Source: Euglena gracilis (taxonomy: Eukaryota). Taken from it: a stretch of 64,000 nucleotides of DNA. The translations under genes were made by a program, and so were the position numbers. Every line of letters starts with the position of its first letter. The stretch's first letter is position 1. The notes under the pieces are model-generated. The model worked only from the letters and a program-made list of their open reading frames with translations, was not told where the DNA came from and ran no database searches. The DNA is taken from contig CP154954.1 in NCBI GenBank assembly GCA_039621445.1, forward strand, positions 18,072,589 through 18,136,588, read 5' to 3'. Positions 36,621-58,161 of the stretch are shown here, one piece after another.

Positions 36621-37390
36621 TATTCTTTTTCTTCTGGCCAGTTTTGGGCCAAAGGTGCTGGCCAGTTTTGGGCCAGATGTGATGGACACTTTTGCAAATG
36701 GAGAATGCCACGGGGGTTGGCCAGCTCTGGGCCACAGGTGGTGGTCAATTTTGTGCCACCTGTGGTGGCCATTTTGGGCCAGAGATGGTGGCCACTTTTG
36801 CACCACAGGTGGTGGCCACTTTTGGGCTAGAGACGGTGGCCAGTTTGGGGCCAGAGATGGTGGCAAGTTTTTGGGCATAGAAAGGGAGGGCAACCATTTA
36901 GGGACAGTGTAGTTTCTATCGAGTCAGCAGACGCTTGCTTGCTTGTTGCCATCGACTGAGAAACGCGGGGTCCATGAATGACGGGGCAGCATTAATGAAT
37001 GCTCTACTGGTCTCCCCGTAACATTTTGGACAAAACCGATGTAAATAATTCCCTGGGTTTCTGACTGACAAGGATAAATGTCTGTTTTTTACGATTGAGA
37101 AATGTCCTCCTTTTTGACGACTGGAATGTTGTAATGCGTAATTATACTGTCGGTAATAAACACAGAATGCAAAATACCATTACTCCCCCTTTAACGACCC
37201 CCCCCCTAAATGACCCTCCGGGGTGGGGGCCCAGACAATGGAAATTTTTTCAAGAAAAAAGTCTTCAAAAACCACCGATCTTTTTGAAATTTTTAGAAAA
37301 GGGAGTTTTCCTTCTGGTAGAAATGGTGCCAGTGAACACAAATTTCACAAAAAAAAGTTCCGAAAAAATGGGGGTAGGGGGGTATCCAAG

Positions 37391-38101
37391 GGGGCGGACG
37401 GACGGACGGACGAACGGCTGGTGAAAAAAGCGAAGGTCCGGACGGACGGCTGACCTTGTGGGCTTGGTCCAGACGGCTGAAGAAAATGCACTTGGTCCAG
37501 CTAGCCGGCTGGCCGGCTGGCCGGCTGGCCGGCTAGCCGGCCGGGTCTTTGGAACCGCAGGCGTAAACCACAATCGCGTAGATCGCCAACCGGAAGTAAC
37601 GGTCCAGATCTGGGTTCCACACAACATGTCAGATCTACAGTACGATGTCCGCTGAGCCGCCCCGTACTGCAAGGTTCGTATCAGAGGTGATGCACGGGCC
37701 TATTTCTGTGGTATTTATCATTCAACCTCAAGATGATTATTTCCAAGTGGCTACAGTGACCTCCTTGCGTACTCAACTCATCCTCCGAGAATGATATCAC
37801 CCCCCGTGGTATAGCGGTCGTGTGGTTAGCGTGTGACCGGTAGATCGCGGGTTCGAATCCCGCCGGGGGGCAGCTTCGTGGTTTTCCTGATTTGACGCGA
37901 CGAGTAGAGGGAAGCTGTGACTGCTTTTCGGAAAGGAAGGAAATTTTTTTTTGGTCCGGCCGGCTGGCAAGACAGACATTGGTCCGGCTTGACGGACGGC
38001 TGGCGAAAAAATGCTTCGTCCGGACGGACGGCTGGGCGTCCAGCATTGGTCCAGCTGAAGAGGTCCGGACGGCTCGGACGGCTAGCCGGCCAGCCGCCCC
38101 C
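37391..38101 (+). mobile_element. GGAC-repeat non-autonomous DNA element, type B copy 1, with tRNA-like cargo
   Basis: Ends GGGGCGG...CCGCCCCC, TSD AAG, subterminal (GGAC)n; near-identical to 46794-47473. Confidence 0.85.
37800..37871 (+). tRNA. tRNA-like sequence with degenerate anticodon arm
   Basis: CCCCCCG/CGGGGGG acceptor, A box TGGTATAGCGG, T-arm GCGGG TTCGAAT CCCGC. Confidence 0.55.
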
Positions 38102-40054
38102 AAGCCCCTTTTTTCGACCCCCCCCTTAGTGACCCCCCCCCTAAGTGACCCTTCGGGGGGGTCCTGGCCGAGACAAGATGGGGGTCATTTGGGGGGGGTA
38201 ATTGTAATTCCCGTTCCTTTCCGAGTGTCCATTGTTTGACATATCGCATGATGGCTGAGAAGTGAAAACTTTGGACGGGTTCAAGTTACAAGAGCTGTTA
38301 TCTATATCGAGAATTGTGTCCCAAACGCCAGTTCGGATGTGAAACCTGTGCCTGGGACGTCGGTTCCGGGGTTACCGCCCGGTAGCCCGGTAGCCCGAAC
38401 CGGCGTCCCAGGCACATGTTTCACGCCCGAACCGGCGTCTGGGACACAGTTTTTGAAACCGTGGCTAGTGGGCTCCGGTTTCACGCCCGAACCGGCGGCT
38501 GAGGAATCACGGCCAATTTCGCCCAAAATACCCATGTTTGGGGCAGTTTTGGGCTACTTTGGCCCAAATGGGCCGCCGGTCAAAAATGGCAGATTACACA
38601 CTTATGAAGCCATGTTACCCATTAATCGAAAGCTCTTCTCAAGGGCTTTCGACAGATGGCCATAGGATTCGGCGGCTCCCGGACCTGGCCTGGGGGGGGG
38701 TAGTGGGCCGACCCTAGGGTCGGCCCAATACGACCCCAGGGTCGCTAGGGTCGCTAAAGTCGTTAAGGTCGACCCCCCCCCCACAGGATGTGGAGTCTAG
38801 GGTCGGCCCACCCCACGACCTCGCCCGCCCCCAAAAAAATGTGGAGAATATTTTTTGCCCATTTGAACAGGAATTGAAGTTGGACTTGATGTCGTTTTGG
38901 GGGGCAAGTCCCTTGTGTTTTCAAATTGTTTTGGGGGGCAAATCCCTTGTGTTGTCCAACCGATCGAGGGCCCCAAAATAATAAAATCCCTTGTGTCTCC
39001 AAGTTGTTTTGGGGGGCAAGTCCCTTGTGTTTTCAAGTTGTTTTGGGGGGCAAATCCCTTGTGTTGTTCAACCGATTGAGGGCCCCAAAATAATAAAATC
39101 CCTTGTGTCTCTCTTGTGTTTCCAAGTTGTTTTGGGGGGCAAATCCCTTGTGTTGTTCAACCGATCGAGGGCCCCAAAATAATAAAATCCCTTGTGTCTC
39201 CAAGTCGTTTTGGGGGGCAAGTCCCTTGTTTTTTCAAATCGTTTTGTGGGCAAAATCCCTTGTGTTTCCAACTGATCGAGGGCCCCAAAATAATAAAATC
39301 CCTTGTGTCTCCAAGTCGTTTTGGGGGGCAAGTCCCTTGTGTTTTCAAATCGTTTTGGGGGGCAAATCCCTTGTGTTGTCCAACTGATCGAGGGCCCCAA
39401 AATAATAAAATCCCTTGTGTCTCCAAGTCGTTTTGGGGGGCAAGTCCCTTGTGTTTCCAAGTTGTTTTGGGGGGCAAATCCCTTGTGTTGTTCAACCGAT
39501 CGAGCTCCCCAAAATAATAAAATCCCTTGTGTCTCCAAGTCGTTTTGGGGGGCAAGTCCCTTGTGTTTTCAAATCGTTTTGTGGGGCAAATCCCTCGTGT
39601 TTCCAACTGATCGAGGGCCCCAAAATAATAAAATCCCTTGTGTCTCCAAGTCGTTTTGGGGGGCAAGTCCCTTGTGTTTTCAAATCGTTTTGGGGGGCAA
39701 ATCCTTGTGTTGTCCAACTGATCGAGGGCCCGAAAATAGTAAAATACCTTGTGTCTCCAAGTCGGTTTGGGGGGCAAGTCCCTGGTGTTTCCAAGTTGTT
39801 TTGGGGGGCAAATCCCTTGTGTTGTTCAACCGATCGAGCTCCCCAAAATAATAAAATCCCTTGTGTCTCCAAGTGCCTTGTGTTTTCAAGTCGTTTTGGG
39901 GGGCAAATCCCTTGTGTTGTCCAACTGATCGAGGGCCCCAAAATAATAAAATCCCTTGTGTCTCCAAGTGGTTTTGGGGGGCAAATCCCTTGTGTTTCCA
40001 AGTTGTTTTGGGGGGCAAATCCCTTGTGTTGTTCAACCGATCGAGGGCCCCAAA

Positions 40055-41854
40055 GGAGGCGGACGGACGGACGGACGGACGGCTGGTGAAAAAAGCGAAG
40101 GTCCGGACGGACGGCTGACCTTGTGGGCTTGGTCCAGACGGCTGAAGAAAATGCACTTGGTCCAGCTAGCCGGCTAGCCGGCTGGCCGGCCCGAGTCCTT
40201 GTAAGCGCAGGCGTCTCAGTGCACGCGACTCTGGAGCTGGGGTGCTGCTAGCCTGGCCACATCTGGCTAGCCGCGGCCAGCCGCGGCTGGCTGGCAAAAA
40301 AAAGGAGGAGGTCTGGCCAGCCAAGATTTGGTGTTCTGTCCCGAAACTTTCTTCCGCTTCATTTTGTTGGACTAGTCCTTTTTTTCTTTTGATATTGAGA
40401 AGTGTATCGTGCACACAGTGTAGTTGGTGCAGCATGCAGTTCGGAACTGTCAGGTCGCGGGTTCAAACCCCGCTGTGTGCAACAAGTTTTCCTCACTTGA
40501 AACCGCCATCTACTGTCATTTTTTTTGAAGAAATTATGAATCACCCTCACGCAAAAAAATGCTTGCATTCCCAATTCTTCTCCTTCAGTGTCACAATGCC
40601 GTTTCGGGTGGAAGCGGTGTGGGATAGTTATGATGAAAGTACAGGGTACTGAAATGAAGTGAAAATACAGGAACTTATTGCTTTATGGAGGCCACATCAC
40701 CACATGCAGGCCACTCAGGCCTTTGCTCTGAACAAATCCACATTCGATCGAGCAGAGGCCTGCCTGCAACACGGTGACAGGCCCTTGGTGGGTCTACTTA
40801 TTTTCTGCTACTTGCTACTTGCATCACAAGTTTCAAGTCTGAAGACAGATTTCACAGACATTTTGTCCTTAGATGCTGGTTTTCTTCTGAAACTTCAATT
40901 TTTATTTCTTGCGTTCTTTATTTGCTGTTCGACAAATGTTGTTGGAAACCAAAAAATTGGGGGAGAAGTTTTTCAATCTGGCAAACGGCCCAAAATTTTG
41001 CATTTCACATTTTTTGCGATGTCATGGTTTTTTTTTTGGGCCGGATGTGGTGGCCAGTTTTGGGCCAGATGTTCTATCCAGTTTTGGGCTAGATGTGGTG
41101 GCCAGTTTTGGGCCACAGGATTCTCTCAGGAAGGAGTTGTTTGGGTGCCATTCTCTTGGAAAGGGGGGGGGGCAGAAAAGCGTTTTGTTTCCGTTTTTTT
41201 TTTTGGCAAAATATGTGTTGTTCAACGAGAAAAATGTCAGTAAAATTTGACTGTGCCAAAAGTTTGTTTACTTTATTGACCTTCGTTTATTTCACCTCCT
41301 CAAAAGTATGAGCTTTTAGGACGGAAAATTTTGAGGTTTTTTGTGAAAAAAGTTTTTTTCCATCAAAAATCACGTGTTTTTGGGTTTTATTTTCCAAAAA
41401 ACTTTTCTGGGCAAAATCCCCGTTTTCCCGAAAACGGTGAAAATGTTGTGGTGGGTGTGGGGGGGGGGTCGACTTACCCCCCCTTCCGGTTCTTCCGGCG
41501 CAGTCTTTTGGTGCTGCCGTCATATGTTGAAGAAATGTTCATCCACCCGAAAAATAAATAGCATTGGACTCCCTGCAGGCGCACTCACGGCAATGCTGGA
41601 GCGTGCACAACAGGAAAAACCGAAGGGCAGGGACAATTTCTTGATTTGACGCGACGAGTGGAGGGAAGACGTGACTGCTTTTCGGAAGGAAGGAAATTTT
41701 TTTTTGGTCCGGCCGGCTGGCAAGAAAAACATTGGTCCGGCTTGACGGACGGCTGGCGAAAAAATGCTTCGTCCGGACGGACGGCTGGGCGTCCACCATT
41801 GGTCCGGCTGAAGAGGTCCGAACGGCTCGGACGGCTAGCCGGCCAACCGCCCCC
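40055..41854 (+). mobile_element. GGAC-repeat DNA element, type B copy 2, with different 1.4-kb cargo
   Basis: Ends GGAGGCGG...CCGCCCCC; TSD AAA confirmed against the interrupted satellite unit GGGCCCCAAAATAATAA. Confidence 0.85.
40411..40481 (+). tRNA. tRNA-Pro(CGG)-like sequence, probably a pseudogene (connector bases missing)
   Basis: GCACACA/TGTGTGC acceptor, GCAG TTCGGAA CTGT anticodon arm, GCGGG TTCAAAC CCCGC T-arm. Confidence 0.6.
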
Positions 41855-42129
41855 AAAATAATAAAATCCCTTGTGTCTCCAAGTCGTTTTGGGGGGCAAG
41901 TCCCTTGTGTTTCCAAGTTGTTTTGGGGGGCAAATCCCTTGTGTTGTTCAACCGATTGAGGGCCCCAAAATAATAAAATCCCTTGTGTCTCCAAGTCGTT
42001 TTGGGGGGCAAGTCCCTGGTGTTTCCAAGTCGTTTTGGGGGGCAAATTGTTGTCCAACTGATCGAGGGCCCAAAAATAATAAAACCCCTTGTGTCTCCAA
42101 GTCGTTTTGGGGGGCAAATCCCTTGTGTT

Positions 42130-42800
42130 CAGGGTTGACGTTTTTTTTGTTTTTTTTTAAAAAAACAAAAAAACATGTTTTTTTAAAAAAAACGCAAAAA
42201 AAACATGTTTTTTTTGAAAAAGCAAAAATTGACCTTTTTCCTTGCGAAATGACCATTTTTTTGAAGAAAATTTTTCGCGGGTAGTTCGGGTCACGGGGGG
42301 GGGTCACGGGGGGGTCACAGGGGGGGGGGGTCACGAGGGGGGGTCACATTTTCGGTGGCCAGATTAGAAATCACCGAAAACGAATTTTTGGGGGAAAATC
42401 CTTTTTAGGCTCCAAAATAGGAATCCCCCAAACGAAAATTAGGAAATCTACCGGAATATTTTGGCATCACCGGCCAAGTTTTTCAGAAAAAATGGCCGAA
42501 CCGGGTCTTAGGTCGGGTTGGGGGAGGGGGGTCAAGGGGGGAACACCCCCTGTGAAGTTTTTTTTTCAAATGTGTGAAAGTATTTCCAAATCTGTGTTTT
42601 CTGGTGCGAATAATCATGCTTTCAACCCAAAAAAATGAATGTTGTAGAGATAAAAAATGCACTTTTTCCCAAAAAAAACATTGCAAAATTTTTTCCCCCA
42701 AACCCTCCATGACGTTTTTTTTTGTTTTATTTAAAAAAACATATTTTTTTTAAAAAAACATGTTTTTTTTGTTTCAAAAAAAAACAAGCCGTCAACCTTG
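42130..42800. mobile_element. hAT-type MITE inserted in the satellite; related copy starts near 61693
   Basis: TIR CAGGGTTGACG/CGTCAACCTTG; perfect 8-bp TSD CTTGTGTT. Confidence 0.88.
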
Positions 42801-44264
42801 CTTGTGTTTCCAAGTTGTTTTGGGGGGCAAATCCCTTGTGTTGTTCAACCGATCCAAGGCCCCAAAATAATAAAATCCCTTGTGTCTCCAAGTCGTTTTG
42901 GGGGGCAAATCCCTTGTGGTTCCAAAACGTTTTGAGGGGTAAATCCGTTGTGTTGTTCAATTGATCGAGGGCCCAAAAATAATAAAATCCCTTGTGTCTC
43001 CAAGTCGTTTTGCGGGGCAAGTCCCTTGTGTTTTCAAATCGTTTTGGGGGGCAAATCCCTTGTGTTGCTCAACTGTTCAAGGGCCAAATCCCTTATGTCA
43101 TGTAGTGATTTTGGGGTGTATTTTGGCATCAGTAATCAATATTAATTTTTCTTAGTTTTGTTTTCTTTGTATTTGAAGGCCTAAAACATCAAAAAAAAGT
43201 CGAATTTTTTTTGATAGGGGCCGAGGTCGTGGGGTGGGCCGACCCTAGGGTCGACCTAGGGTCGGCCCACGACCCTAGGATGGGCGACCCTGGGGTCAGC
43301 CCACTGCGACCCTAGCGACCTTAGCGACTTTAGCGACCTTAGCGACCCTAGGGCCGTATTGGGCCGACCCTGGGGTCGGCCCACTACCCCCCCCCTCCAG
43401 GCCAGATCTACCCCCCGGATTCGGCCATAATGCAGCGCTTATTTTCAGCGATTGTGTATTCCAAAATTTGACATCCTAATTTGTTAAATCCCACAGCTCA
43501 GGTTGTATATTGCATATCAAACGAAAGGTCTCACCAACACCTTTCACTTGGTACCCACAGAACTCAACCAGATTGCAAATTGCAAAGCGCCCTCAAAATC
43601 AGCGATCGCATTTTTCCGCATTTTTCGGACCCCATTTGCATATCTGAAATTACACTTTTCAGCTGCCATGTTGCCCATCGATCGAAAGCTCTTCTCGAGG
43701 GCTTTCAGCAGATGGCCTTAGATTTCTGCCATGCTTTGTGGTATTCTATTTCAGAAAGTCTCCAAAATTGGCCAAAAGGAAATTTTCCTCAAAAACCCCA
43801 AATTTTTGGGCCAAGTCCACCCAAAAACTGCTCAAATGTGATTCCCACGTATCCACGAACCCTTTTGGACACTTTTTGGCACGTTTTATTTTGGGTCCCC
43901 CAGACGCCGGTTTCACGCCCGAACCGGCGTCTGGGACACCGGTTCGGCACAGAAATTTCCCGCCCGAACCGGCGTCCCAGACGCCGGTTCGGGCATGAAA
44001 CCGGAGCCCCCAGACACGGTTTCAAGTGTTTATCAAGTGCATGTTATTATGTTATTGAGATCAAGTTTCAACTTAAACCGTTTTTGAACCCGGCGTTTGA
44101 GACGCCGGGTTCAGGACAGAACCGGCGTCCCCCCCCCATGGGTTTTCCAGATGCTGGTTCTGTCCTAAAACCCGGCGTTATGAACGCCGGTTCTGTCCAA
44201 AACCCGGCGTCCGGTTTGGGACTGTTTTTTGTGCAAAAAAGTGTGCCAATGTGACCCCAGAAAC

Positions 44265-45453
44265 CAGCGGTGTAGAAACAACTTTTTCTCGGGGGGGGGG
44301 GCGAGATCCTGGGCCTGAAGCGAAGTTAGCGCCCGTCATAAACAGAAAAATTCCAAAAATAGCACCTTTTCAAAAATTTTCGGTGCCAAAGACGCCGAAA
44401 AGAATATCCCACTCCCCCTGGGGTGACCCCCCGGGGGGGGGGGGGCTTGGCGGGACCCCAATGTTCCCATTTTTTTGTTTTAAAAAAAGCAAAAAAAACT
44501 TTCATGAATAAAAAAAGGGTTTAAAAACGTTTTTTTGTTTTAAAAAGGGTGCTTTTTTAAAAGTAAACACCACAAATAGGAAAAAAACCTGTTATAAACA
44601 ACTTGTTTAAAAACAGCCCAGTAACCTTGCAGGACTCACCCCCCCCACCCCCCCCCCTGGGGTCCACGACGGAAAAAAACCCTGTTACCAATGTTGTTTG
44701 AATGTGTTGTTTTCTTTTTGCCGCCCGAAGGGCGGCGAGACGGTAGCACTTTTTTGAAAGAAGGCATTGAACGTAACAAAAAAATGTGGCAATTTTTTGA
44801 CATCATGCCAATTTGACATTTTGACACCATCACAATTTGAAAGCTTTCAAGCTGCCAGCGGGCGGAGACGGTGTTGCCTTTTGTGTTTTGGGATTTGAAA
44901 CGAGTGCAAAATGCGAAAAAGAGCCCTCTGTCCATTTTGTATTGAACAAAAAAAACATATTGCCGGCCGAAGGGCGGCTGGACGGCAGTGCAATTTTCCA
45001 AGAACATTCCCCAAAAAGAGCCAAATTTATCAACAGAATGGTTTGCTCTTTTAAAAAATTCAACATTAGAAGCCAAGTCAAGTTACATGTGTTTCCTGTT
45101 GCCACCCAAAGGGCGAGACGGGAGTGGAGATATTCACAAACAACAACTTCAGATTGGAAGAAGGAAAACTTTTTTCCCCTCTCTGACCATGAGTTTTGGG
45201 CTTGTTTGGCCGCCCAAAGGGCGGCAAGACGGTAGCGATGTCCAACAACAAAAACACCCAAAAGTTCAATGAAAAGTTGGGTTCTTAATCTGAAAGAATT
45301 TTTTCACAAAGTGCAAAAAATTTTTGGAGGGTAACTTTTTTCGGGGGGGGCAAAAAAGTTTTGAGTCAACCCACCTCGGGGGGGGGGGGCGAAAAAATCT
45401 CGGGGGGGGGGGGGGGCGGCCGCCCCCCCTGCCCCCCAGTTTCTACACCAATG
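44265..45453. mobile_element. hAT-type non-autonomous element, same family as 57214-57998
   Basis: TIR CAGCGGTGTAGAAAC/GTTTCTACACCAATG; TSD CCAGAAAC/GCAGAAAC. Confidence 0.8.
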
Positions 45454-45795
45454 GCAGAAACGAAAATCTCCTTGGCTGAAGGGGGATAAGAGGCACAATA
45501 TCATGGCTGAGCGCAAAATATCATGGATGTGGCGGCAAGTGTTTTGCAGTTTCTGAGGTGGGGGGAGGACTACTGGGCATACAGGGAGCCACAGCTGCAG
45601 CAATTATGGCCGAGCTCCTTGGCGATGAGGAGGGCACCGAGTTGTGCGGCGACTCCGGTGAACAGTGCCAAAGAGAGGCCCTGTTGTAGTCCATCAAGGA
45701 ACACGCTCCGCGCCCCACCGGAGGCCATGGCCCCAAGGCGACGCCGGAGCTCATCCCATACGCCGTGACTGTCTCGCCGAAGGACCCCCAGACGC

Positions 45796-46247
45796 CACAG
45801 CCGGCACTTCGTTTAAAACGAAGTAAAGAAAAAAACGTTTTCTTTAAAAAGAACATGTTTTTTTTAAAAAAAACAAAAAACGCCATTAAGGGTCCAGGGC
45901 AAAAAAATTTTTGCCTTTAATTTTAGCTTTTTTTGCCTATCCTCGGTCAGAGAAAGACACCAAATTTGGGATGTTTCAACCATAGCTGGCACTAGGACCT
46001 TGTTTGGAATGGTTTCAAGCCAAAATGGCGGAAAAATGCCCTATTTTGACCATTCTTGTTGAAGACAACCAAAAGTATTGGTTTTCAAGTCATTTGAGCT
46101 AAGATTGGTTCACCCTTGCGATCAAAGGCAAAATTTGGACCATCATTTTCCCCTTTGTTTTTTCCGTTTTTTTTGCCCGTTCTTTTTTTAATAAAAAACA
46201 AAAAAAAGTTTTTTTTAAAAAAAAACAAAAAAAAAACGCCAGCTATG
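45796..46247. mobile_element. hAT-type MITE in the minus-strand CRE element
   Basis: TIR CACAGCCGGC/GCCAGCTATG; perfect 8-bp TSD CCAGACGC. Confidence 0.85.
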
Positions 46248-46291
46248 CCAGACGCTGAGGATCAATGGGGAGAAGCCCCGTGCCTGGCAAC

Positions 46292-46602
46292 GAGGGGTAG
46301 ATTTATCCTGGGGGGGGGTAGTGGGGGTCGACCATGGTCGCTTTCGGTCGCCCTCGGTCGCCCTCGGTCGTGGGGGGGGGGTCGATGTCAAAATGTGCGC
46401 TACATGCAAAATTTGCGCAACATACAAGCAAAAGGCGTTACACACACAAGGGATTTTGTTATTTTAGGGCCCTGGAACAGTTGCCTACGCCGCTACATGG
46501 CAAAAAAGGTGGGAAAAAAATCAGTAGGAATCACCCATAGCGACCGAGAGCGACCATGGTCGACCCCCACTACCCCCCCCCCCCAGGCCAGATCCGGGAG
46601 CC
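46292..46602. mobile_element. Short MULE-like MITE of the same family, opposite orientation
   Basis: 9-bp TSD CCTGGCAAC; same terminal motifs. Confidence 0.82.
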
Positions 46603-46793
46603 CCTGGCAACGCGCCCCATACTTGGCCGTCTTTTTCTGGGCCCGGCCGCGCAGGAGCTCCGATGAGGCGGGCAAGCTCCAAGCAGCACTGGGTGGTGAG
46701 GGGTGATTGAAGCCCACGTCGATGGCCCACGAGGCAGCCCCCGACCAATGTGGCAGAAAGGTATCCACATCACGCTTCTGATCTGCAGCCACA

Positions 46794-47473
46794 GGGGGAG
46801 GACGGACGGACGGACGGACGGCTGGTGAAAAAAGCGAAGGTCCGGACGGACGGTTGACCTTGTGGGCTTGGTCCAGACGGCTGAAGAAAATGCACTTGGT
46901 CCAGCTAGCCGGCCGGGTCTTTGGAACCGCAGGCGTAAACCACAATCGCGTAGATCGCCAACCGGAAGTAACGGTCCAGATCTGGGTTGCAGACAACATG
47001 TCAGATCTACAGTACGATGTCCGCTGAGCTGCCCCGTACTGCAAGGTTCGTATCAGAGGTGATGCACGGGCCTATTTTTGTGGTATTTATCATTCAACCT
47101 CAAGATGATTATTTCCAAGTGGCTACAGTGACCTCCTTGCGTACTCAACTCATCCTCCGAGAATGATATCACCCTTCATGGTATAGCGGTCGTGTGGTTA
47201 GCGTGTGACCGGTAGATCGCGGGTTCGAATCCCGCCGGGGGGCAGCTTCGTGTTTTTCCTGATTTGACGCGACGAGTAGAGGGAAGCTGTGACTGCTTTT
47301 CGGAAAGGAAGGAATTTTTTTTTTGGTCCGGCCGGCTGGCAAGACAGACATTGGTCCGGCTTGACGGACGGCTGGCGAAAAAATTCTTCGTCCGGACGGA
47401 CGGCTGGGCGTCCAGCATTGGTCCAGCTGAAGAGGTCCGGACGGCTCGGACGGCTAGCCGGCCAGCCGCCCCC
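46794..47473 (+). mobile_element. GGAC-repeat DNA element, type B copy 3, inserted in the minus-strand CRE endonuclease region
   Basis: TSD ACA at 46791-46793 and 47474-47476; removal restores LEISVAADQKRDVD. Confidence 0.88.
47171..47243 (+). pseudogene. Copy of the 37800-37871 tRNA-like sequence with a mutated acceptor stem
   Basis: Same sequence except CCCTTCA in the 5' acceptor strand. Confidence 0.55.
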
Positions 47474-48401
47474 ACAGAAATCTCGAGAGCATGGCGGATC
47501 CCCCGGGCCTGCAGCTGGGCACCCAGAAAGTGTTGAACCGGTGGTGGCGCTCCCACAACTTGTTCTTGTGGCAGCACAGAGCGTGATCCCCAAAGGGATC
47601 CACCACCTGCCCGCAACCCAAGGGGCAGGGTGAACCTGCCAGGCTCAACGGGATGATGCAACCCCAGATGCCACTTCATCATCAGGCGAAACGATGCACC
47701 GTCCACGGCAAACCCGGCAGCCAGAGGGGCGAGCCCCGATCCAGCTCGAGCACGGGGGTGGGCCGGGTCACGGGGGGGGTCACGGGGGGGGTCACGGGGG
47801 GGATATGGCCTCCTCTTCAATGTTTCCGGCTTCCGAGACATTTGAAAAAAAATACTGAAAGCAGTTGTGATTGAAGCACGTGCGTTTGCGGACCCCAAAA
47901 TCGGGGGGTGTTCAAATCCGGGTCACGGGGGGGTCACGGGGGGGGGGGTCACGGGGGGTCACGGGGACGACACTCCAATGGAAGAACTCTGATGCTCAAA
48001 GCGGACCCGGTCTCGGTCGTTCAAGGTCGTGAGGAATGCCGGACGTGCTGCTTGGCGCAGCTGATCGCTCCACCATGCCTGATCGTGGTGGGTGGTGTCG
48101 TCAGGGGTCAAGGCGCCGTTTCCTGCCCATCTCCGCACTGGCTCGAGGCATCCCCCAAGTGCTTTTGCAGCCCGGAGAGTAGATCGTTTAATCCGTCAAT
48201 GGGGGCGTGAGGACGGACGGACGGACGGACGGACGGACGGACGGATGGCTAGAGAAAATTCCTTTCATCTGGACGGACGGCTGGACAGCATTTTGGTCTG
48301 GACGGACGGACGGCTAGGTTGGTCTCAAAATCGCGAAACATCTCGGCTTTTCCTACCGGGCTTGCAAGGACGAGACGAACAAACATAACAACAAAAAAAA
48401 G

Positions 48402-48473
48402 AGATCTTACCCGGGTTCGAACCGAGATTGTGGGAACCATAATCCCACGTGCTGGCCACTGCACTATAAGACC
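48402..48473 (-). tRNA. tRNA gene with anticodon ATG and Gln-like body, inside a type A element
   Basis: Full cloverleaf GGTCTTA-TA-GTGC AGTGGCCA GCAC-G-TGGGA TTATGGT TCCCA-CAAT-CTCGG TTCGAAC CCGGG-TAAGATC-T, followed by a T-run terminator. Confidence 0.75.
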
Positions 48474-49078
48474 GATGAATGAAACTGAAAATAAGAGCCA
48501 TGTAAAAAGTGCCGAGCCTTTCCTTTTTTTTCATCCATCGCATTCTGAGGCATTTTTTTTTCTTCAGGACACACGATTAGATGTGCAGTGGTGGAGCGAA
48601 CCGAATCCACCCACCAGTGGCACAGCGTTTTGTCCTTTGGCCGCCTTGGAGCTGGGGTACCACCCCCCCCCCCTTTATTGTCCCACCGACCTGCCCCCGG
48701 GAGGCCCGACTGGACAATAAAGGGGGGGGGACAATAAAGGGGTACCAAAGGAATTTCATTGGCCGGGCCAAAAAAACCCCCCGTCGGCCGGGGCCCAGGG
48801 ACAATAAAGGGGGGGGGACAATAAAGGGGGGGGGGGGTGGTATCTGGCTAGCCGCGGCTGGCCGCGGCTGGCTGGCTGGCAAAAAAAAGGAGGAGGTCTG
48901 GCCAGCCATGGCCAGCCACGGCTGGCTGGGGCGATTTAGAGGAGGAGGAGGTCTGGCTGGATATAGTTTTGAGGAACTGAAAGAGGAGGAGGAGGTCTGG
49001 CTGGCCGCGATGAGAAATTGGCTGAAGGGTAAGCCCCGCGATCCGGGCAAGTCCTGATTCAGGGTTTTTTCTGCACAA

Positions 49079-52000
49079 CGCCGCCGAGATGGTGGGCATG
49101 GGCCTGCAACGCTACGTCCAGTCAAGCCACCTCCAAGGGGACAACGACTACGTGGTGTTGCAGGTGGATATGCGCAATGCCTTCAACTCCATCAGTAGGG
49201 ATGCAATGCTCCGGGGATGCTTGGCCAAGGTACCCACGGCGTACAACTGGCTGCGCTTTTGCTACAGTGGACCAAGTCCGCTGTTCTGCCAAGGGCGCTT
49301 CCTGTGTACAAGCCAGATCGGAGTGCATCAAGGCGACGCATGCGGGCCCTTGGGCTTTGCACTGGGCTTGGACTACGCCCTTGACCAGTGCTTTGCCCGG
49401 GACTTGGCATGGGAGTCTTGGTACCTCGACGACGGCCACATCGTGGGGAAACCAGCAGTGGTTTTGGCCCGCCTCCATGACCTCAGCACGGTCCTGGAGC
49501 GAGTAGGCCTCCACCTCAATTTGGCCAAGTGCAAATTTTGGGGACCTGGGATGCAAACGGTCAATCAAGCCGGGCCACATTACCCAGACGGTTTGGCAGA
49601 AGACCACTTGGGACGACAAGTGCCCGTGATTCCCTTTGGAGGACCGAGGGGCATCACGACCCTGGGCGTCCCAATTGATGCCCCGCGGGAGCATCGCACA
49701 GCACAAGAGGACACGCCAAGAGCACCACAATGCCAAGCCGTGTGGGAAGAGACCGTGGACAGGGCGACCTTGCTCCTGGAACGGCTCAGGGGATACCCAG
49801 AGGGGCAAGTGCGGCACGCACTCTTGCGGTACTGTCTTGACGGATGTCGGGTGGTCCACCTCCTCCGATCAACGGAGAGAGAAAACGCACGGGACTCCCC
49901 GCTCATTCTCAGGGCACGGCTGCAGGAAGCCGTACAAGATCTCCTCGGACTGGGAATCACCGAGAGTTCATGGGATCAAGTCTCCCTGCCCATCCGCCAA
50001 GGAGGACTCGGAATCTCGGACCCCGAAGTGTTGCAACCCGCGGCACGGATGGCGGCCTTGCTGAATCTGGGGATGCACGGCAGCCAAGCAGTGGGGGTGC
50101 CAGCCTCGGTGTTGGCAACCCCATCCCCGGACATGCAAGACACGCTACAACGGTTGCAGCAACAGCTTGGCCCCAACATGGATCCCGTGGCCAGCTGGCT
50201 CGCAGGCACCACCCCACTCTCCTCCGCAGCACCAGAACACGCCACCCAACGGTGGTGGGCGGAGAAAGTTGCGGAAATGCAGAGCCAGCGAGTCGACGCG
50301 GTCGGCTCTGCCAGGGACCGGGTGAGACGGGCTTGCCAAAAGGGACCGGTGGCAACGGGATGGCTGCGGACTTTGCCCAGCAAGGCACAGCACACAGCTT
50401 TCTCGGACACCCAATACCGGCTGCTACTACGGTGGTGGCTTGGCCTGCCCATCCTCCCTTCAGGGGTCACGCTGCCGGGGTGCCCACTGTGTCGGGGGTC
50501 CATTGATCCTTTCGGGGATCACTTCGTCTGCTGCGAGCAGAATGGAAACACCCAACGGCACAATGGAGGCGTGAGGACGGACGGACGGACGGACGGACGG
50601 ACGGACGGACGGCTAGAGAAAATTCCTTTCATCTGGACGGACGGCTGGACAGGGTGCATTTTGGTCTGGACGGACGGACGGCTAGGTTGGTCTCAAAATC
50701 GCGAGAGTGCACGTATTCCTAATTACTGTGGCTTTTCTGGTTGTGTTTTTTCGACATGTCACATGGCTGAGACCCCTGGCGGGGTTCTAGTTACAAGCTG
50801 GTATTATCAAGTACAATTTTTTGTCAAGTTTCAAGTTCAAGTGCAACTTATGATTCCAAGGACAAGACGAAGGCGAAGTGGAGTACTGTTTGCAAGCGGA
50901 TATGTACGCTGGTGGACAGGGCTTCTGGCCTCAGTGCTGGGGCTTCTTTGGCGTGATGCTGCTGGTTGCTGTGGAATTGACTTTAAGAAGTCGGTCTGTT
51001 TCAGTTTGTGTGAACTGTGTTTTGTTTCTTGCCTTTTCTTTTTGTTTCTGTTTACAAAATAGCCCCAGAACAAAGGAAACCGAGAAACTTCGGTCAGTTT
51101 TTGCAAAGCTCCCATTCAGATTGTGGCAGTGTGCCAAATGTGAAAGGGATTTTGAAGATTTTGAAGATTTTTGGGCACAGGTGGTGGCCAGTTTTTGGGC
51201 CACATGTGTTGGCAAGTTTTTGGCCAGATGTGGTGGCCAGTTTTGGGCCAGATGTTGCCAGATTTGGGCCAGATGGTGCCAGATTTTGACCAGAAACGTT
51301 TTATCGTGATGCTTTTTTTGAAACTTTTTTTTGTTTCTTGCATTCTTTTTTTGCTGTCCAACAAGTTCTCTTTGCCAAAGAAAGCTAAAAAATTGGGGGG
51401 TGCAGTTTTTGATCCAGCAAATGGCAGTTGGAGGGTTTGTGCTGGCCAGTTGTGGAACCGATGGGTGGCCAGGTTTTGGGCCAGTTTTGTTGCCGATATT
51501 TTCTCAAGCATGCAGACCAATGGGCCGCAGGTTTTTTTCGGCGGGGTCTTTTTGTCCGGAGCTCCTACCGGTGAAAGCCAACGCGGCCTTGTGTCGTTCC
51601 GAAAATTCACCTCGGCGGCTTCTGAACCGGGGAAAACTTCGCTCACCTCCCGCGCAAACAGTTCATTCCTGATCCAGCAATCACTCCGTGCGGCGTACGT
51701 ATTGTTTGGTCTGGATGGCCGGGCGGCTAGCGACAGTGGCTTTCATCTGGACGGACGGCTGGACAGCCGGCATGTTGGTCGGCCAGGTTGGTCTGCCAGC
51801 CGGCTAGGTTGGTCCGGCCAAACGCCCCCAATGCATTCCGAGATGCTTTTGCGGCGATGTGTGCCCGGTACAACATTGCGGTGGAGAAGGAGGCCGAGTG
51901 TTTGGCGAACAAAAGACCAGCCGACATTCTCCTCATCAACTGGTCACGGGGGCAACACGTGGCAGTTGATTTCGTCTGCAGCCACCCCGCGGGGCTGGGA

Positions 52001-52664
52001 GAGCACCCACTGGTGGTGGACAATGCCCGCAGGCATTGCAACCAGGTGGAAACCAGGAAAGTGCAGACGGATGGCCCCCCGTGTCAGGCGAAGGGGTGGG
52101 GCTTCTCACCCTTCGGCCTGAGCACATGGGGAGGCCTGGGGACCTCTGCCAAGGCGGTGCTGTTTGAGGTCACCAAAAGGGCCACCGCAGACATGCGGGG
52201 ATGGCCAAAGACAAGGGCCCTGCAAGAAATGCAGGAAGCACTATCGGTGACACTCATGCGCCACGTGGCGCGGCAGCTTTCCGCCAGGGACCGCGTGGAG
52301 GAGGCCCTCCACCCATGGTAAGTCCCCAACCCCCACCGCAGACCACACCAAAAGCGAGCAAGACCAAGACCAAGACGGCCACAACCCACAAAGCGCGGAG
52401 GTTCCCCACGGAAACACCCCCCCCCCAAAAGGCGGCCCCCCCCCACACAAAAAAAAAAAAAAAACGAAGCCGCCAAAAAAAAAAAAACAGAGCCTACACG
52501 CCAGGCGAAAGGCATCCGCCCAACGAGGCGACAAAGGGGAGTGGAGCCGGCAAAAGCAACACACACGCAAAGGGTAGCCCGCCCGCCCTGGACTCCACAA
52601 GGTGAGAAGAGAGTGCACGCGCGACCCAGCAAGCCGGCTATAGCCCCTAAAAACAAAAAAAAAA
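49079..52664 (+). mobile_element. 5'-truncated CRE-like non-LTR retrotransposon (RT, CCHC zinc finger, restriction-like endonuclease), interrupted by a DNA element at 50565-51829
   Basis: Motifs QVDMRNAFNS, GVHQGDACGPLGF, WYLDDG, CPLCRGSIDPFGDHFVCC, RPADILL..VAVDFVC; stop at 52321; A-rich tail to 52664; TSD TTTCTGCACAA at 49068-49078 and 52665-52675. Removing the insert and one AAT restores the frame (RHNAFRD). Confidence 0.92.
50565..51829 (+). mobile_element. GGAC-repeat DNA element, type A (1.27 kb), inserted in the CRE ORF
   Basis: Ends GGAGGCGT...ACGCCCCC; TSD AAT at 50562-50564 and 51830-51832. Confidence 0.9.
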
Positions 52665-52957
52665 TTTCTGCACAAAATGTCAGGCCTGGTCAGAAGTTCA
52701 TATTTCTCTGCTGCAGATCACGGGCAAGAGACCTCTGAAGTCTATCGTGCAGAAGTGGGTGAGGCGCTTTTGGAGATGATTGCATGGTGCTTAGACCCTG
52801 TACACAGGTGGCTTGAGTTGAAATGAACTTATTGGAAGGAGTTTGTTGGTGACTAATCTGGACAAACTGCTCCATTGTGTTGGAATGCCTATCTTGTGTG
52901 CTTTCTGTTTCCTGTTGCTGTGTCGAAAAAGGCGAAGGTTTTTGTCTGTCCATGTGA

Positions 52958-53238
52958 TGGCCAGTTTTGGGCCAGATGTGTGGCCAGTTTTGGGCCAGAT
53001 GTGTTCGTCAGTTTTGACCAGAGGTCATGGCCAGTTTTGGGCCAGATGTGCTGGCCAGTTTTGGGCCATGTGTGGTGGCCAGTTTTGGGCCACATGTGCT
53101 GGCCAGTTTTGGGCCAGATGTGATGGTCAGGTTTGGGCCAAGTGTGCTGGCCAGTTTTGGGTCAGATGTGACGGCCAGTTTTGGGCCACAGGACGTGGCC
53201 AGTTTTGGGCCACAGGCTGTGCCCAGTTTTGGGCCACA
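52958..53238. repeat. ~23-bp minisatellite GGCCAGTTTTGGGCCA(G/C)ATGTG; also at ~36636-36870, 41035-41117 and 51170-51290
   Basis: About 12 tandem units visible. Confidence 0.85.
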
Positions 53239-56200
53239 ACCTTTTCTCAGGAGTTCTTTGGGTGCGATTCTCGAGGAGGGGGGGAGGGCACAAAAGGGTT
53301 TTTGCGTTTTTTTTGGCAAAATTTGTGTTGGGGGGCTTTTCTGTGCTGCTCGGTTGTTTTTCCGTGCCCCCCTCCGTCTTCTGGCGGAGTCATATAGTGC
53401 TCCCGTTGCTAGGGTGTTGATCGTTCCATGAAACCGAAAGTGCTTCCCAGCTGGAATAACTAAATAAGACGAGACTATTTTTAGTTGCGGTTGCGACTGC
53501 TCGCCGTTGACACATCCGCCGGCATGGATGTTGCGATTAAACCTGGCGAGCACAGCCGTCGAGCGTAATAAAAACCGGCGAGGTTGTGCCGCTGTGGCTT
53601 TGCCCTTCTTTAAACTTTGGCGCTCTCTGGTGGGCACTAAAAAAAGGAGGAGGCGCCCCAGCCGCGGCCAGCCACGGCTAGCCGTGGCTGGCGGCTGGGA
53701 GAAAAGAGGAGGAGGAGGTCTGGCTGGTGGCTGGTGAAAAAAAGAGGAGGAGGAGGTCTGGCCGGTATCTGGCTGGCCGTGGGGACCCCAGCTCCCTTGA
53801 ATTCGAAGTTCGCGGACACCAAATTAGGATCAAATTTAATGCCATTGCATTACCAACGAACTGTTCTTTCCCCATCCAGATCAAAGTTCAACCAACCAGA
53901 CGGTTCATATTGGGCGAATTTGAAGACTTTGGGATTTTGCTGTCTGGACCAGATTTATGATGACAACTTCACAGTTGAAGGTATGATCCCTTTCGCTTGT
54001 TCCGCTGAATTGCTCATTTTTTCCAGTGAAAGTCGGCTGTGTTGACCCTTTCCACTGTTTGTCTGTGAAAATAAATTTAAATGAAAAATTTGTGGCTGTT
54101 GCATCAACTGTTGGCATGCATCTGTGGCATCACATGGTTTTTCAATGCAACCTTCTGTCAAAACCTGTTCATGTTTTCCTGTTTTTTGGGAATTTTTTGC
54201 ACCATCATTCATGGCCAACATCTCACATCACAGTTATCACAATTGACACACATTGACTGTGTGCATTGTTGCAATTGCAATTGTGTGTTTGAATGCATTT
54301 TTCAGGTGAATTGACAGAAACTGAAGAACAGAGAAGCAGCTGGATTCTAATGACGGACAAGGAAGGCAGGTGAAAAAGTTGTTTGTAACTGCTGCACTGT
54401 AATATGGCGCCCGTTTTTTTTTTCTGCTGCATTGTTTGTGTTCTGCAAATGTGTGTCTGTGTTTTCAATTTTTTTTCTGGCCAAAATCCCAACTTTTTTT
54501 CAAGGATCGTTTTGTCATCAACATGTTGCACATTTAATGCCTCACAGTTCAACTTCGCATTTCATCAAACGTTGGGTTTGAAACACCAGGTTGTTCTTTT
54601 TGTGTTTTTATTTGTATTTTTGGGGGAAACTGAAACAAAACCTTTTCCTTTTCAGGCTGGATTTCTTTAGGTTTTTTTTTTGCGGGCCTTGGGCGCAAAA
54701 AAACGTTGGGTGAATGATCAAATCAGGCTTCCGCAAAAAATTGAACACACCACCCTTCGAGTTAGTGTTCTGCCGCTTTTTCCCGGTGGGGAACCCTGCG
54801 GGACTGGGGGGCGGATAGGACACACCACCAACGCCCCGCCGGCCCATGTCCGCTTCCCCACTGCGGCCAAACGGCGGCGCAGAATTGTTCCGTCGTCCGA
54901 GATAAGTACGTGTTTGTCGTCCGGTGAATCGGCCTCCCCATTACGAAAACACTAATTCCTGCTCAAGCCATGAGTTCGTGCGGCGTACACATTGTTTGGT
55001 CTGGATGGCCGGGCGGCTAGCGACAATGGCTTTCATCTGGACGGACGGCTGGACAGCCGGCATGTTGGTCGGCTAGGTTGGTCTGCCAGCCGGCCAGGTT
55101 GGTCTGCCAGCCGGCTGGGTTGGTCCGGCCAAACGCCCCCATTGGTCCGGCTTGACGGACGGCTGGCGAAAAAATGCTTCGTCCGGACGGACGGCTGGGC
55201 GTCCAGCATTGGTCCAGCTGAAGAGGTCCGGACGGCTCGGACGGCTAGCCGGCCAGCCGCCCCCACAGAAATCTCGAGAGCATGGCGGATCCCCCGGGCC
55301 TGCAGCTGGGCACCCAGAAAGTGTTGAACCGGTGGTGGCGCTCCCACAACTTGTTCTTGTGGCAGCACAGAGCGTGATCCCCAAAGGGATCCACCACCTG
55401 CCCGCAACCCAAGGGGCAGGGTGAACCTGCCAGGCTCAACGGGATGATGCAACCCCATCAGGCGAAACGATGCACCGTCCACGGCAAACCCGGCAGCCAG
55501 AGGGGCGAGCCCCGATCCAGCTCGAGCACGGGGGTGGGCCGGGTCACGGGGGGGTCACGGGGGGGGTCACGGGGGGGATATGGCCTCCTCTTCAATGTTT
55601 CCGGCTTCCGCGACATTTGAAAAAAAATACTGAAAGCAGTTGTGATTGAAGCACGTGCGTTTGCGGACCCCAAAATCGGGGGGTGTTCAAATCCGGGTCA
55701 CGGGGGGGTCACGGGGGGGGGGGTCACGGGGGGTCACGGGGACGACACTCCAATGGAAGAACTCTGATGCTCAAAGCGGACCCGGTCTCGGTCGTTCAAG
55801 GTCGTGAGGAATGCCGGACGTGCTGCTTGGCGCAGCTGATCGCTCCACCATGCCTGATCGTGGTGGGTGGTGTCGTCAGGGGTCAAGGCGCCGTTTCCTG
55901 CCCATCTCCGCACTGGCTCGAGGCATCCCCCAAGTGCTTTTGCAGCCCGGAGAGTAGATCGTTTAATCCGTCAATGGGGGCGCGAGAAATGTTACTCAGG
56001 CCCAAGGAGTTGGGTGCATGGTGGATCCATGACAACAGTGCACTCAGACGTGCCGGCAGGACGGAGTCCAGTGCCAGCTTCTTAGGGAGATTTCATTGTC
56101 AAAAAACGGGAGGGACCAATTAATCGTTAATCGTCCGAGACACCCCGATTAATCGCGATTAATCGTTCGCCAGCCCGAAACGATTAATTGGCACAACCCT

Positions 56201-57998: not shown

Positions 57999-58161
57999 GT
58001 TGGCCGAGCATAGCCATTCCGCTGCCGTGGGGTGCAGAGACCCCTGGGTGCACTGTTGGACAAGGTCGTCCAAGGCCTACAGCAACGGAGTGGGTTCCCA
58101 CTGCCACCGTCCCGTAACAGTTCGGCAAGGTATGCGGGTCGCAGGCCAGACGGCCCCGGTG

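Follow-up and report, generated by a model that had tools for sequence, protein, structure and literature searches.

Abundant non-autonomous TIR transposons of Euglena gracilis with tRNA-like units as their probable passengers

Introduction

tRNA-like Pol III units are a hallmark of SINEs, which move via RNA. In the 64-kb stretch of Euglena gracilis DNA analyzed here (the window), such units lie within elements bounded by terminal inverted repeats (TIRs). How did they come to be there, and do they contribute anything to the elements that carry them?

Results

Three element families with shared architecture

The preliminary description of this locus listed five elements with common TIRs of about 8 bp and asymmetric GGAC-type subterminal arrays, and both features were borne out. 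All five intervals start with a GGRGGCG-type sequence and finish with CGCCCCC; they belong to families A and B, the homologous ends of which form an 8-nt perfect inverted repeat in consensus (GGRGGCG..). A third family, C, absent from that description, has the same architecture, with ends GGAGCTGGGGT.. and direct GGCTAGCC / AGGAGGAGGTCTGGC arrays. The window holds three A elements, two B elements, one C element, and one C-type piece, all element copies being on the same strand within 18 kb:

37391-38101, plus strand: A1, family A non-autonomous TIR element, 711 bp, duplication AAG
40055-41854, plus strand: A2, family A ends with a C-type interior, 1800 bp, duplication AAA, sitting in a 112-bp satellite
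40233-40330, plus strand: C-type left TIR and subterminal array within A2, matching right end absent
46794-47473, plus strand: A3, family A element, 680 bp, duplication ACA, interior as in A1
48201-55140, plus strand: B4, family B element with nested inserts, its own parts being 48201-48647 and 53799-55140
48648-53795, plus strand: C, element of the third TIR family, duplication CTT, empty site in RNA reads and a contig
50565-51829, plus strand: B5, family B element, 1265 bp, within a LINE ORF, delimited by P0002 alignments, duplication AAT

TIR identity was 14 to 17 of 22 positions in A2, A3, B4, B5, and C, and 11 of 22 in A1 if its start is 37391. In the 64-kb window, the right-end 14-mer had six exact matches, every one an element end (0.31 expected), and three further matches with one mismatch, away from the exact six. 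The motif GGACGGACGG occurred in 40 copies, all on the plus strand and confined to 37396-55194, against 0.12 expected for the window. Inside the elements, GGACGG was distributed 65:0 and GGTCYRG 34:1 between the plus and minus strands, at both ends; this strand bias shows that the subterminal arrays are direct, not inverted. The interiors, previously called unrelated, do differ behind the same ends, but not throughout: A1 and A3 have 578 bp in common at 97.9%, a 24-bp minisatellite module is common to A2, B5, and C, and the A2 interior is C-type. A2 is an A/C chimera: its outer ends belong to family A, whereas the left end and interior that they enclose are C-type.

Target-site duplications and empty sites

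Of the six elements whose two ends both lie in the window, five are flanked by exact 3-bp duplications; B4 is not. The proposed rule that target sites start with A and follow a C holds for A1, A2, A3, and B5, each duplication being preceded by a C. B4 has AAT on its left and ATT on its right; since these flanks differ, B4 has no duplication. The family C element is flanked by CTT. In A1, the third base can be read in two ways, giving AAG if the element end has four Gs and AA if it has five.

Insertion was proven for A2, B5, and C by empty sites, each with a single target copy. Intact satellite units read CCCCAAAATAAT, whereas the A2 insertion reads CCCCAAA, A2, AAAATAAT. For B5, the homologous uninterrupted protein P0002 serves as the empty site: its residue 535 ends the left alignment and starts the right one, and the duplication AAT is one Asn codon of the LINE ORF. 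For C, six RNA reads and one 255-nt contig overhang pass directly from 48648 to 53799.

A nest flanked by a segment duplication

The 6.9-kb interval of B4 is a nest, in which B4 contains C, C contains a LINE, and the LINE contains B5. Copies of an approximately 858-bp segment lie on both sides of B4; these copies and the LINE inside C are as follows:

47350-48207, no strand assigned: X1, first copy of the segment, comprising the 3′ part of A3 and a decayed minus-strand LINE
49079-52668, plus strand: 5′-truncated non-LTR retrotransposon in C, recognized by RVT_1 and homologues, duplication TTTCTGCACAA
55141-55982, no strand assigned: X2, second copy of the segment

The left border of the inserted LINE coincides with a loose RNA end at 49078, and non-LTR retrotransposons in the nest number two. 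A contig that joins 48344 to 51689 represents a cargo-less B form and is a deletion derivative of B. X1 aligns with 55140-55986 over 863 bp at 97.8%; the first 124 bp of X2 (55141-55264) are the right end of a family A element, and its last bases are AAT and GGGGGCG. Placed between the two copies, B4 looks like a product of aberrant transposition. As in the alternative (sister-chromatid) transposition of Ac/Ds, directly repeated host DNA lies on both sides of an element, with edges that coincide with the element's termini, and a few terminal bases stand at the far edge, as a donor-site footprint would in that model. Unlike in Ac/Ds, this is a single case with no second element, and the seven end bases of X2 are in frame with the LINE ORF and may be native to it.

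Coding capacity

The absence of a visible transposase, noted earlier, was confirmed for the window: a single Pfam match, RVT_1 of the nested LINE, was obtained among 23 ORFs or pieces. The three interior ORFs gave no Pfam match at E values up to 10, and scans of metagenome, genome, and viral sequences returned nothing related.

tRNA-like units

All Rfam tRNA matches across the 64-kb window (gathering score, 29) lie inside the elements. Four of the five elements first described carry a unit, of three kinds and each followed by T-runs, just as had been reported:

37800-37871, plus strand: kind 1 unit in A1, Rfam tRNA 32.4 bits, ARAGORN Thr-TGT
40409-40481, plus strand: kind 2 unit in A2, Rfam tRNA 34.9 bits
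47172-47243, plus strand: kind 1 copy in A3, found by ARAGORN only
48402-48473, minus strand: kind 3 unit in B4, Rfam tRNA 54.7 bits, ARAGORN His-ATG

Downstream of the kind 1 head are TTTT at +12, a 65-nt body, an A-rich tail GGAAAGGAAGGAAA, and T9, whereas kinds 2 and 3 consist of the tRNA-like part and T-runs only. The kind 1 copy in A3 has three changes in the 5′ acceptor strand and falls under the Rfam threshold. Kind 2 is without two pairs of the anticodon stem and has TTTT at +8 and T8 at +40. Kind 3 forms a full cloverleaf with T8 two bases past its end; its anticodon is ATG, and that of tRNA-His is normally GTG. Although their anticodon arms are poor, all three kinds have a complete acceptor stem, which could reflect constraint, and the B boxes match the consensus GGTTCGANNCC at 11, 10, and 11 of 11 positions. 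Relative to the element, the units are in plus orientation in A and minus in B4. Genuine tRNA genes were considered and rejected, given the scores of 32.4, 34.9, and 54.7 bits, the sub-threshold copy, the stem gaps of kind 2, and the ATG of kind 3.

Secondary SINEs with duplications of their own, which the preliminary description had set against its proposal, were not seen: no direct repeats of at least 8 nt surround any of the four units (60 nt upstream, 300 nt downstream), and 7-nt flanking matches were at chance level (194 to 361 of 500 shuffles). Nor was similarity of the units to LINE tails or other window sequence found. The body recurs without a head in A2 (41637-41703), at the same place as in A1 and A3. 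All three kinds fall within element sequence totaling about 6.2 kb, and the remaining 58 kb, equally repeat-rich, has none; by position alone, such placement amounts to about 1 in 1000 in post hoc arithmetic. The concentration exceeds simple hitch-hiking and hints at biased capture or retention.

Abundance

Depth was taken from two DNA runs of different studies, in which summed contig depth does not equal copy number. Summed word depth in X1 was 271,000 to 322,000 for the A ends, whereas the flank bin had 9,600 and the A1/A3 interior bin 23,700; the pattern was repeated in X2, and across the two DNA runs end bins were 25 to 70 times deeper than the flank bin. Families A, B, and C are very abundant. 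Per-site depth over the A3 unit was 115,000 to 127,000; it was 74,000 to 119,000 in the A-specific 3′ sequence next to the unit and 43,000 farther toward the interior. Hence the unit roughly equals the neighboring part of the element in frequency and is not far commoner, and since this similarity of A-type unit and adjacent element sequence is seen in both DNA runs, units appear to travel with their subfamilies. The B4 unit bin reached 30,300 and the B left-end bin 44,600. Unit-bearing subfamilies are deep in both runs, and so are the unit-less forms (B5, C proper, and the short B form). RNA reads occur on the interiors of B4, B5, and C; 0 of 47 fell on the units, in one poly-A-type run that is uninformative for Pol III products.

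Discussion

Class assignment

A, B, and C are non-autonomous, MITE-like TIR transposons, presumably of the cut-and-paste type, with TIRs, a fixed duplication, empty sites, many copies, and no coding capacity. Their previous reading as DNA transposons with 3-bp duplications, a C|A target bias, and the same ends around different interiors is supported. Their placement in the PIF/Harbinger group agrees with the 3-bp duplication but not with the target: PIF/Harbinger prefers TAA/TTA (TWA), seen in 0 of 6 sites here (AAG, AAA, ACA, AAT, ATT, and CTT). MITEs of that group have short G-rich TIRs, no coding capacity, very high copy numbers, and subterminal protein-binding repeats. Tourist-like MITEs (mPing and mJing) thus resemble A/B/C in their 3-bp duplication, short G-rich TIRs, non-coding nature, high copy number, and subterminal repeats, whereas A/B/C target C|ANN and never TAA/TTA, have subterminal repeats on the same strand at both ends, and contain tRNA-like modules. 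According to a recent report, PIF/Harbinger transposition requires two proteins (10.64898/2026.05.26.728016). The pair consists of a DDE_Tnp_4 transposase and a Myb/MADF DNA-binding protein, and neither occurs within the 64-kb window.

CACTA/En-Spm (CMC) elements make 3-bp duplications without strict consensus and have long subterminal arrays of short repeats between CACTA/CACTG termini. A/B/C share the duplication and the arrays, but their termini are GGRGGCG or GGAGCTGGGG and their arrays direct only. As in Pack-MULE and Pack-CACTA elements, identical ends enclose unrelated interiors, some of them present in RNA. The proposed Pack-type system finds no support in the window: none of the three interior ORFs has a Pfam match, no interior piece could be linked to a host gene, the cargo that recurs is Pol III-type instead of gene fragments, and the variation is largely nesting, deletion, and the A/C chimera.

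Origin and role of the units

We favor, with a probability of about 0.6, the explanation that A, B, and C are related, very abundant non-autonomous DNA transposons with degenerate tRNA-derived passenger modules, each acquired once per subfamily. Mere segmental duplication or misassembly of an immobile (GGAC)n-rich region is very improbable. One real duplication of about 858 bp is present and the copies all lie on one strand within 18 kb, but five exact 3-bp duplications in unrelated contexts and the very high depth of the ends, with differing flanks, in one DNA run from each of two studies argue against it, and the three independent empty sites already contradict it. It is also rather doubtful that the units are ordinary tRNA-derived SINEs or tRNA pseudogenes retroposed secondarily into a few copies, with the link to the families arising from repeat crowding. 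Like such SINEs, the units have tRNA-like sequence, A- and B-box-like motifs, and a T-run; kind 1 adds the body and A-rich tail, two non-LTR retrotransposons lie in the same nest, and the headless body in A2 resembles a 5′-truncated copy. Unlike SINEs, however, the units lie hundreds of bases inside a TIR element, on either of its strands, without a duplication of their own, and spread as DNA with a 3-bp duplication. Depth over the units is no higher than over the element-specific sequence next to them, kind 3 is just a tRNA-like gene followed at once by a terminator, neither LINE has a tail in common with the units, and the other 58 kb has no tRNA-like match. Furthermore, head and body at one place in A1 and A3, and the body there in A2, speak for a single old event passed on through DNA transposition rather than for repeated insertions.

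More unlikely still is that the units are retained as helpful, i.e., that a DNA transposon superfamily repeatedly recruits and keeps putative Pol III/TFIIIC-binding modules that would aid its amplification as boundaries shielding against heterochromatin, as anti-silencing devices, or as a small-RNA source; insulator, anti-silencing, and small-RNA roles are pure speculation. The confinement of tRNA-model matches to elements, with three kinds in three backgrounds (A-type, the C-type interior of A2, and B-type), would fit such retention, as would the depth of unit-bearing subfamilies, the B boxes, T-runs, and complete acceptor stems. On the other hand, unit-less forms are deep too, the A3 copy has decayed below the Rfam threshold, kind 2 has a broken anticodon arm and kind 3 the anticodon ATG, the orientation is not fixed, and RNA reads on the units are lacking in a run uninformative for Pol III. 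The units are most likely passengers.

For the passenger explanation, we propose that a transposase encoded elsewhere, presumably of DDE type, acts in trans on the short TIR and the same-strand GGTCYRG/GGACGG sites, and would excise the element and reinsert it at C|ANN with a 3-bp stagger. DDE cut-and-paste is suggested by the TIRs and fixed duplications only, the window containing neither an autonomous copy nor a transposase. Interior differences would then stem from nested insertions, internal deletions, and inter-family chimeras. Judged by sequence, the modules appear to be degenerate, tRNA-derived, and of Pol III type; each may have been acquired once by a subfamily founder, which either captured flanking or template DNA or received a SINE or tRNA-gene insertion long ago, and then been amplified to high copy as a passenger of the DNA element.

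Significance

Three tRNA-like kinds co-amplified within three related TIR families are unusual, and full-text literature searches found no description of such a case. If the units bind TFIIIC/Pol III, a DNA transposon would have spread thousands of mobile boundary or small-RNA sites through a large genome, and if the recruitment reading is true, a class II element would be using a class III promoter as a working part. Even as passengers, the copies will be miscalled tRNA genes or SINEs in annotation. The clean ends, the C|ANN target, and the same-strand subterminal arrays provide a handle for finding the presumed transposase.

Three related families of terminal inverted repeat elements

The DNA of the window is repeat-rich and of eukaryote type. 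The five intervals delimited in the preliminary description are real elements, three copies of one terminal inverted repeat (TIR) family (A) and two of another (B), and a third TIR family (C), absent from that description, lies within B4.

TIR elements in the window
37391-38101, A1, family A
40055-41854, A2, family A
46794-47473, A3, family A
48201-55140, B4, family B
48648-53795, C, third TIR family, within B4
50565-51829, B5, family B

Homology between A and B extends over ~140 bp at their left ends and ~150-220 bp at their right ends. Six exact matches to the right-end 14-mer GGCCARMCGCCCCC occur in the window, each at an element end; with one mismatch, three more matches fall elsewhere in the window (0.31 expected). 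The inverted repeat is short and perfect over 8 nt (GGGGGCGG in A, GGGGGCGT in B), and 14 to 17 of 22 positions agree in A2, A3, B4, and B5. Across the families, the ends are of the type GGRGGCG or GGAGCTGGGG.

Arrays of GGACGG and TTGGTCYRG lie internal to the inverted repeat. GGACGGACGG occurs 40 times in the window, always on the + strand and always within elements (0.12 expected), and 23 of the 24 occurrences of TTGGTCYRG (3.75 expected) are likewise on the + strand within elements. Both ends bear motifs, and the per-element strand counts (+:-) were 65:0 for GGACGG and 34:1 for GGTCYRG. Thus, the subterminal repeats are direct, not inverted, which bears out the earlier designation of the arrays as asymmetric. 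Such direct repeats make the two ends of an element functionally unlike.

The ends of C read GGAGCTGGGGT.. and ..ACCCCAGCTCC, matching at 16/22 positions. Its arrays are direct, of GGCTAGCC/GGCTGGCC and of AGGAGGAGGTCTGGC (six matches against 0.02 expected), and GGTCYRG stands at 5:0 (+:-). With its TIR, direct arrays, GGTCYRG, and a 3-bp duplication (CTT), C is therefore of the same build as A and B. A C-type left end is also present at 40233, inside A2. All five A and B copies share one orientation (37391-55264; chance, 1 in 16), and the GC skew is positive across 36-58 kb.

Target duplications and empty sites

Of the six elements whose left and right ends both lie in the window, five have identical 3-bp flanks (AAG, AAA, ACA, AAT, and, for C, CTT). 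The 3-bp duplications described preliminarily hold for A1, A2, A3, and B5 and fail for B4, where AAT on the left and ATT on the right form no duplication. The final base of the A1 duplication is ambiguous, being shared between the duplication and the G-run. At all A and B sites, C precedes the duplication and the duplication starts with A; each of the three B junction sites reads CAATG or, in complement, CATTG.

A2 was inserted in a 112-bp satellite whose intact units read CCCCAAAATAAT; the interrupted unit reads CCCCAAA, A2, AAAATAAT, with three A gained. B5 lies within the ORF of a non-LTR retrotransposon. In alignments with P0002, a homologous retrotransposon protein serving as empty-site reference, the left part extends to residue 535 (Asn) and the right part begins from residue 535. 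Therefore, one Asn codon, AAT, was duplicated by B5. The empty site of C, with a single CTT, appears in six raw RNA reads (run X24) passing from 48648 straight to the sequence after C at 53799, and also in one contig of run X15 with a 255-nt overhang.

Order of nested insertions

A3 and B4 were inserted in a decayed non-LTR retrotransposon (LINE); C entered B4, a + strand LINE entered C, and B5 in turn entered this LINE.

LINE copies in the window
~58.7 kb (~58700) to 55281, plus 48159-47490, - strand, decayed LINE, frameshifted
49079-52668, + strand, 5'-truncated LINE inside C, RVT_1 match 1e-9

Owing to the nested inserts, the sequence of B4 itself comprises only 48201-48647 and 53799-55140, ~1.8 kb. 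The + strand LINE has 100 homologues of at most 77% identity in short contigs. Its duplication is TTTCTGCACAA (11 bp), and its empty site is represented by an RNA loose end that breaks off at 49078 and resumes at 52680. Both LINE copies belong to one group with an RT and a C-terminal region, the latter carrying a CCHC-like and a PD..D-like motif.

Other repeats are also present. The - strand LINE is interrupted at 56090-56210 by a short element whose inverted ends read CCAATTAATCG../..CGATTAATTGG. The left end of C contains a ~190-bp element (48656-48845) whose inverted ends are poly-C/poly-G TTTATTGTCC; no bins of the stretch have a higher summed depth than those of this element (1.0-1.55 million in sequencing run X1). 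Two inverted copies (297 bp, 87.5%) of an element of ~290 bp, its inverted ends being of GGGGGGGGGTAGTGGGGGTCGACC type, occupy 46310-46603 and 58161-58452; related ends recur at 38692 and 43395. The interval 38692-43395 is bounded by 80-nt inverted arms, 94% complementary and starting with a G-run plus TAGTGGG, that enclose the 112-bp satellite array and A2. This arrangement points to a further large TIR element, with the satellite as its interior.

The segmental duplication around B4

B4 is bracketed by direct copies of a ~858-bp segment, at 47350-48207 on the left and 55141-55982 on the right (863 bp aligned, 97.8%, one 16-bp indel, 300-nt blocks at 100%). The edges of the duplication coincide with both B4 termini, at CAATG/CATTG sites. 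The right copy directly abuts the final base of B4, at a C|ATT|G site in the 3' part of an A copy; in A3, this site is uninterrupted. At its far edge stands gtcAAT, behind which come GGGGGCG, identical to the initial 7 nt of B, and unrelated LINE sequence.

This layout is that expected of aberrant transposition. Two ends from sister chromatids may have been used, leaving a footprint at the donor site, as in the model from Ac/Ds work; alternatively, non-concerted integration may have produced a "giant" duplication. A footprint is made less likely by the GGGGGCG heptamer, which is in frame (Arg-Ala-Pro) within the - strand LINE ORF, and by the - and + strand LINE proteins, which align over the joint with one gap (E 5e-4, single comparison). 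The heptamer may thus be native to the LINE, in which case the left joint would be a 7-nt microhomology. Among the records listed (22 of 1270 loose ends and 15 of 62 joints, with the (GGAC)n at 48201-48257 excluded), none bridges the B4 junctions.

Composition of the interiors

A1 and A3 have one common interior (578 bp at 97.9%), and B4 and B5 have only their ends in common. The interior of A2 opens with the C-type left end and then follows the C interior in order, over the minisatellite and flank (77.5%) and a further stretch of ~45 nt, without the C right end. Thus, A2 is an A/C chimera with A ends and a C-type interior, to which its tRNA-like unit belongs. The "swappable cargo" proposed earlier is real as a pattern, though it largely reflects nesting, deletion, and chimeras. 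Capture of host genes finds no support in three small interior ORFs, which gave no Pfam match at E up to 10.

The 24-bp minisatellite (GGCCAGTTTTGGGCCA and a further 8 nt) occurs, together with common flanks, at 41034-41115 (A2), 51168-51294 (B5), and 52952-53236 (C), and also outside these elements at 36634-36876; it reaches a very high depth in DNA runs. The B4, C, and B5 interiors are represented among RNA reads and RNA-type contigs. They cover parts of B4 (48588-48621, where the loose ends at 48588 and 48621 resemble exon edges) and of B5 (50675-51030). To 50785-51030, a 247-nt RNA-type contig aligns free of mismatches and with a single gap.

The tRNA-like units

Three kinds of tRNA-like unit lie in the elements, and these are the three Rfam tRNA matches at gathering score in the whole window.

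tRNA-like units
37800-37871, kind 1, in A1, Rfam tRNA 32.4 bits
40409-40481, kind 2, in A2, Rfam tRNA 34.9 bits
47172-47243, kind 1 copy in A3, ARAGORN
48402-48473, - strand, kind 3, in B4, Rfam tRNA 54.7 bits

A permissive tRNA-model search (E up to 1) found no further match in 1-37000, in 56000-64000, or in 37000-56000 outside the elements. With ~6.2 kb of the 64 kb being the elements' own sequence, the location of all three independent kinds inside them has a probability by position of ~1 in 1000, calculated post hoc.

Each kind has a good B-box-like motif by the box consensus sequences, a complete 7-bp acceptor stem, and a T-run downstream (kind 1, TTTT at +12 and T9 at +65; kind 2, TTTT at +8 and T8 at +40; kind 3, T8 at +2). 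None makes a convincing case for a functional tRNA. The score of kind 1 is low, and three transitions alter the 5' acceptor strand of its A3 copy; kind 2 misses two anticodon-stem pairs; kind 3 forms a full cloverleaf with the anticodon ATG, where GTG is normal for histidine tRNAs. Downstream of kind 1 lie a 65-nt body and an A-rich tail, and the headless body is also found in A2. The T arms of kinds 1 and 2 are alike at 17/20 positions and their trailers are similar; as 7/7 acceptor pairs differ, they are treated as separate kinds and not as homologues.

Depth in DNA and RNA runs

Word depth was summed over the contigs of X1 and X2, two DNA runs that belong to different studies; it does not equal copy number and serves only as a profile along the stretch.

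Depth profile
Flank bin, summed: X1 9,594; X2 4,182
A end bins, summed: X1 270,864 to 321,649; X2 201,133 to 231,159
A1/A3 interior bin, summed: X1 23,733; X2 18,492
47078 (interior), per site: X1 43,307
47215-47229 (unit T arm), per site: X1 114,987 to 126,800
47266-47289 (A-specific 3' region), per site: X1 73,957 to 119,303
47337-47385 (subterminal array), per site: X1 489,271 to 712,008

The pattern was alike in both runs. By the per-site depths, the A3 unit is about as frequent as the adjoining element sequence; it is thus not confined to these copies, nor does it vastly outnumber the element. In B4, the unit bin reached 30,274 against 44,637 for the left-end bin, and a contig joining 48344 to 51689 represents a short B form without cargo. 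Of the 47 reads placed from ~5/100 of run X24, none falls in bins 46600-48539 and none on the units, this being a cDNA library and uninformative for small Pol III RNAs. The A1 stretch is represented to a small extent (share 0.14) in one metatranscriptome dataset.

Discussion

The elements are non-autonomous TIR transposons: their ends are inverted, their duplication has a fixed length, empty sites exist, copies are numerous, and coding capacity is lacking. It is highly improbable that they are anything other than mobile DNA. As described earlier, no transposase is visible: the 20 longest ORFs of the window and 3 interior pieces contained no transposase domain, and the one Pfam match among the 23 was RVT_1. 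The affinity to PIF/Harbinger proposed preliminarily stands as regards the 3-bp duplication and fails at the target, since that group inserts at TAA/TTA, found at 0/6 sites here. CACTA elements share the 3-bp duplication and subterminal arrays, but their termini differ. Zator and Academ are also superfamilies with 3-bp duplications. The passages of PMC5751038 considered here contain no end or duplication data for these two.

A metagenome scan with a 19-nt subterminal pattern returned 99 stretches (at least 80 loci) and nothing related; BLAST matched them only over 20-29 nt around the pattern, as expected by chance. The 26-nt A right end had no match in the genome-contig and viral-contig collections. 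A protein-atlas search returned generic RVT_1 clusters only, and a spliced-leader motif had one match, with 3 mismatches, which is at chance level (1.39 expected). Full-text searches of the literature brought up no description of TIR elements with tRNA-like modules; subscription journals and Repbase lie outside this scope, and families A, B, and C may already be catalogued.

We consider it probable, at roughly 60%, that these are cut-and-paste elements mobilized in trans, in which each tRNA-like unit would have been acquired once, in the founder of a subfamily, and then amplified as a passenger. The units could instead be secondary insertions of SINEs or tRNA pseudogenes, which appears unlikely. 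The preliminary description had named SINEs with their own target duplications as one case that would overturn it; no direct repeats of at least 8 nt were found around any of the four units (60 nt upstream, 300 nt downstream), and 7-nt matches are at chance level, being reached in 194-361 of 500 shuffles. Furthermore, the units and their trailers match nothing in the rest of the window, both LINE tails included.

Somewhat less likely still is retention of the units because Pol III/TFIIIC binding benefits the element. The clustering of all tRNA-model matches inside elements and the presence of three kinds in three family backgrounds keep such a benefit in consideration, whereas the decayed A3 copy, the abundant relatives without a unit, and the free orientation of the units speak against it.
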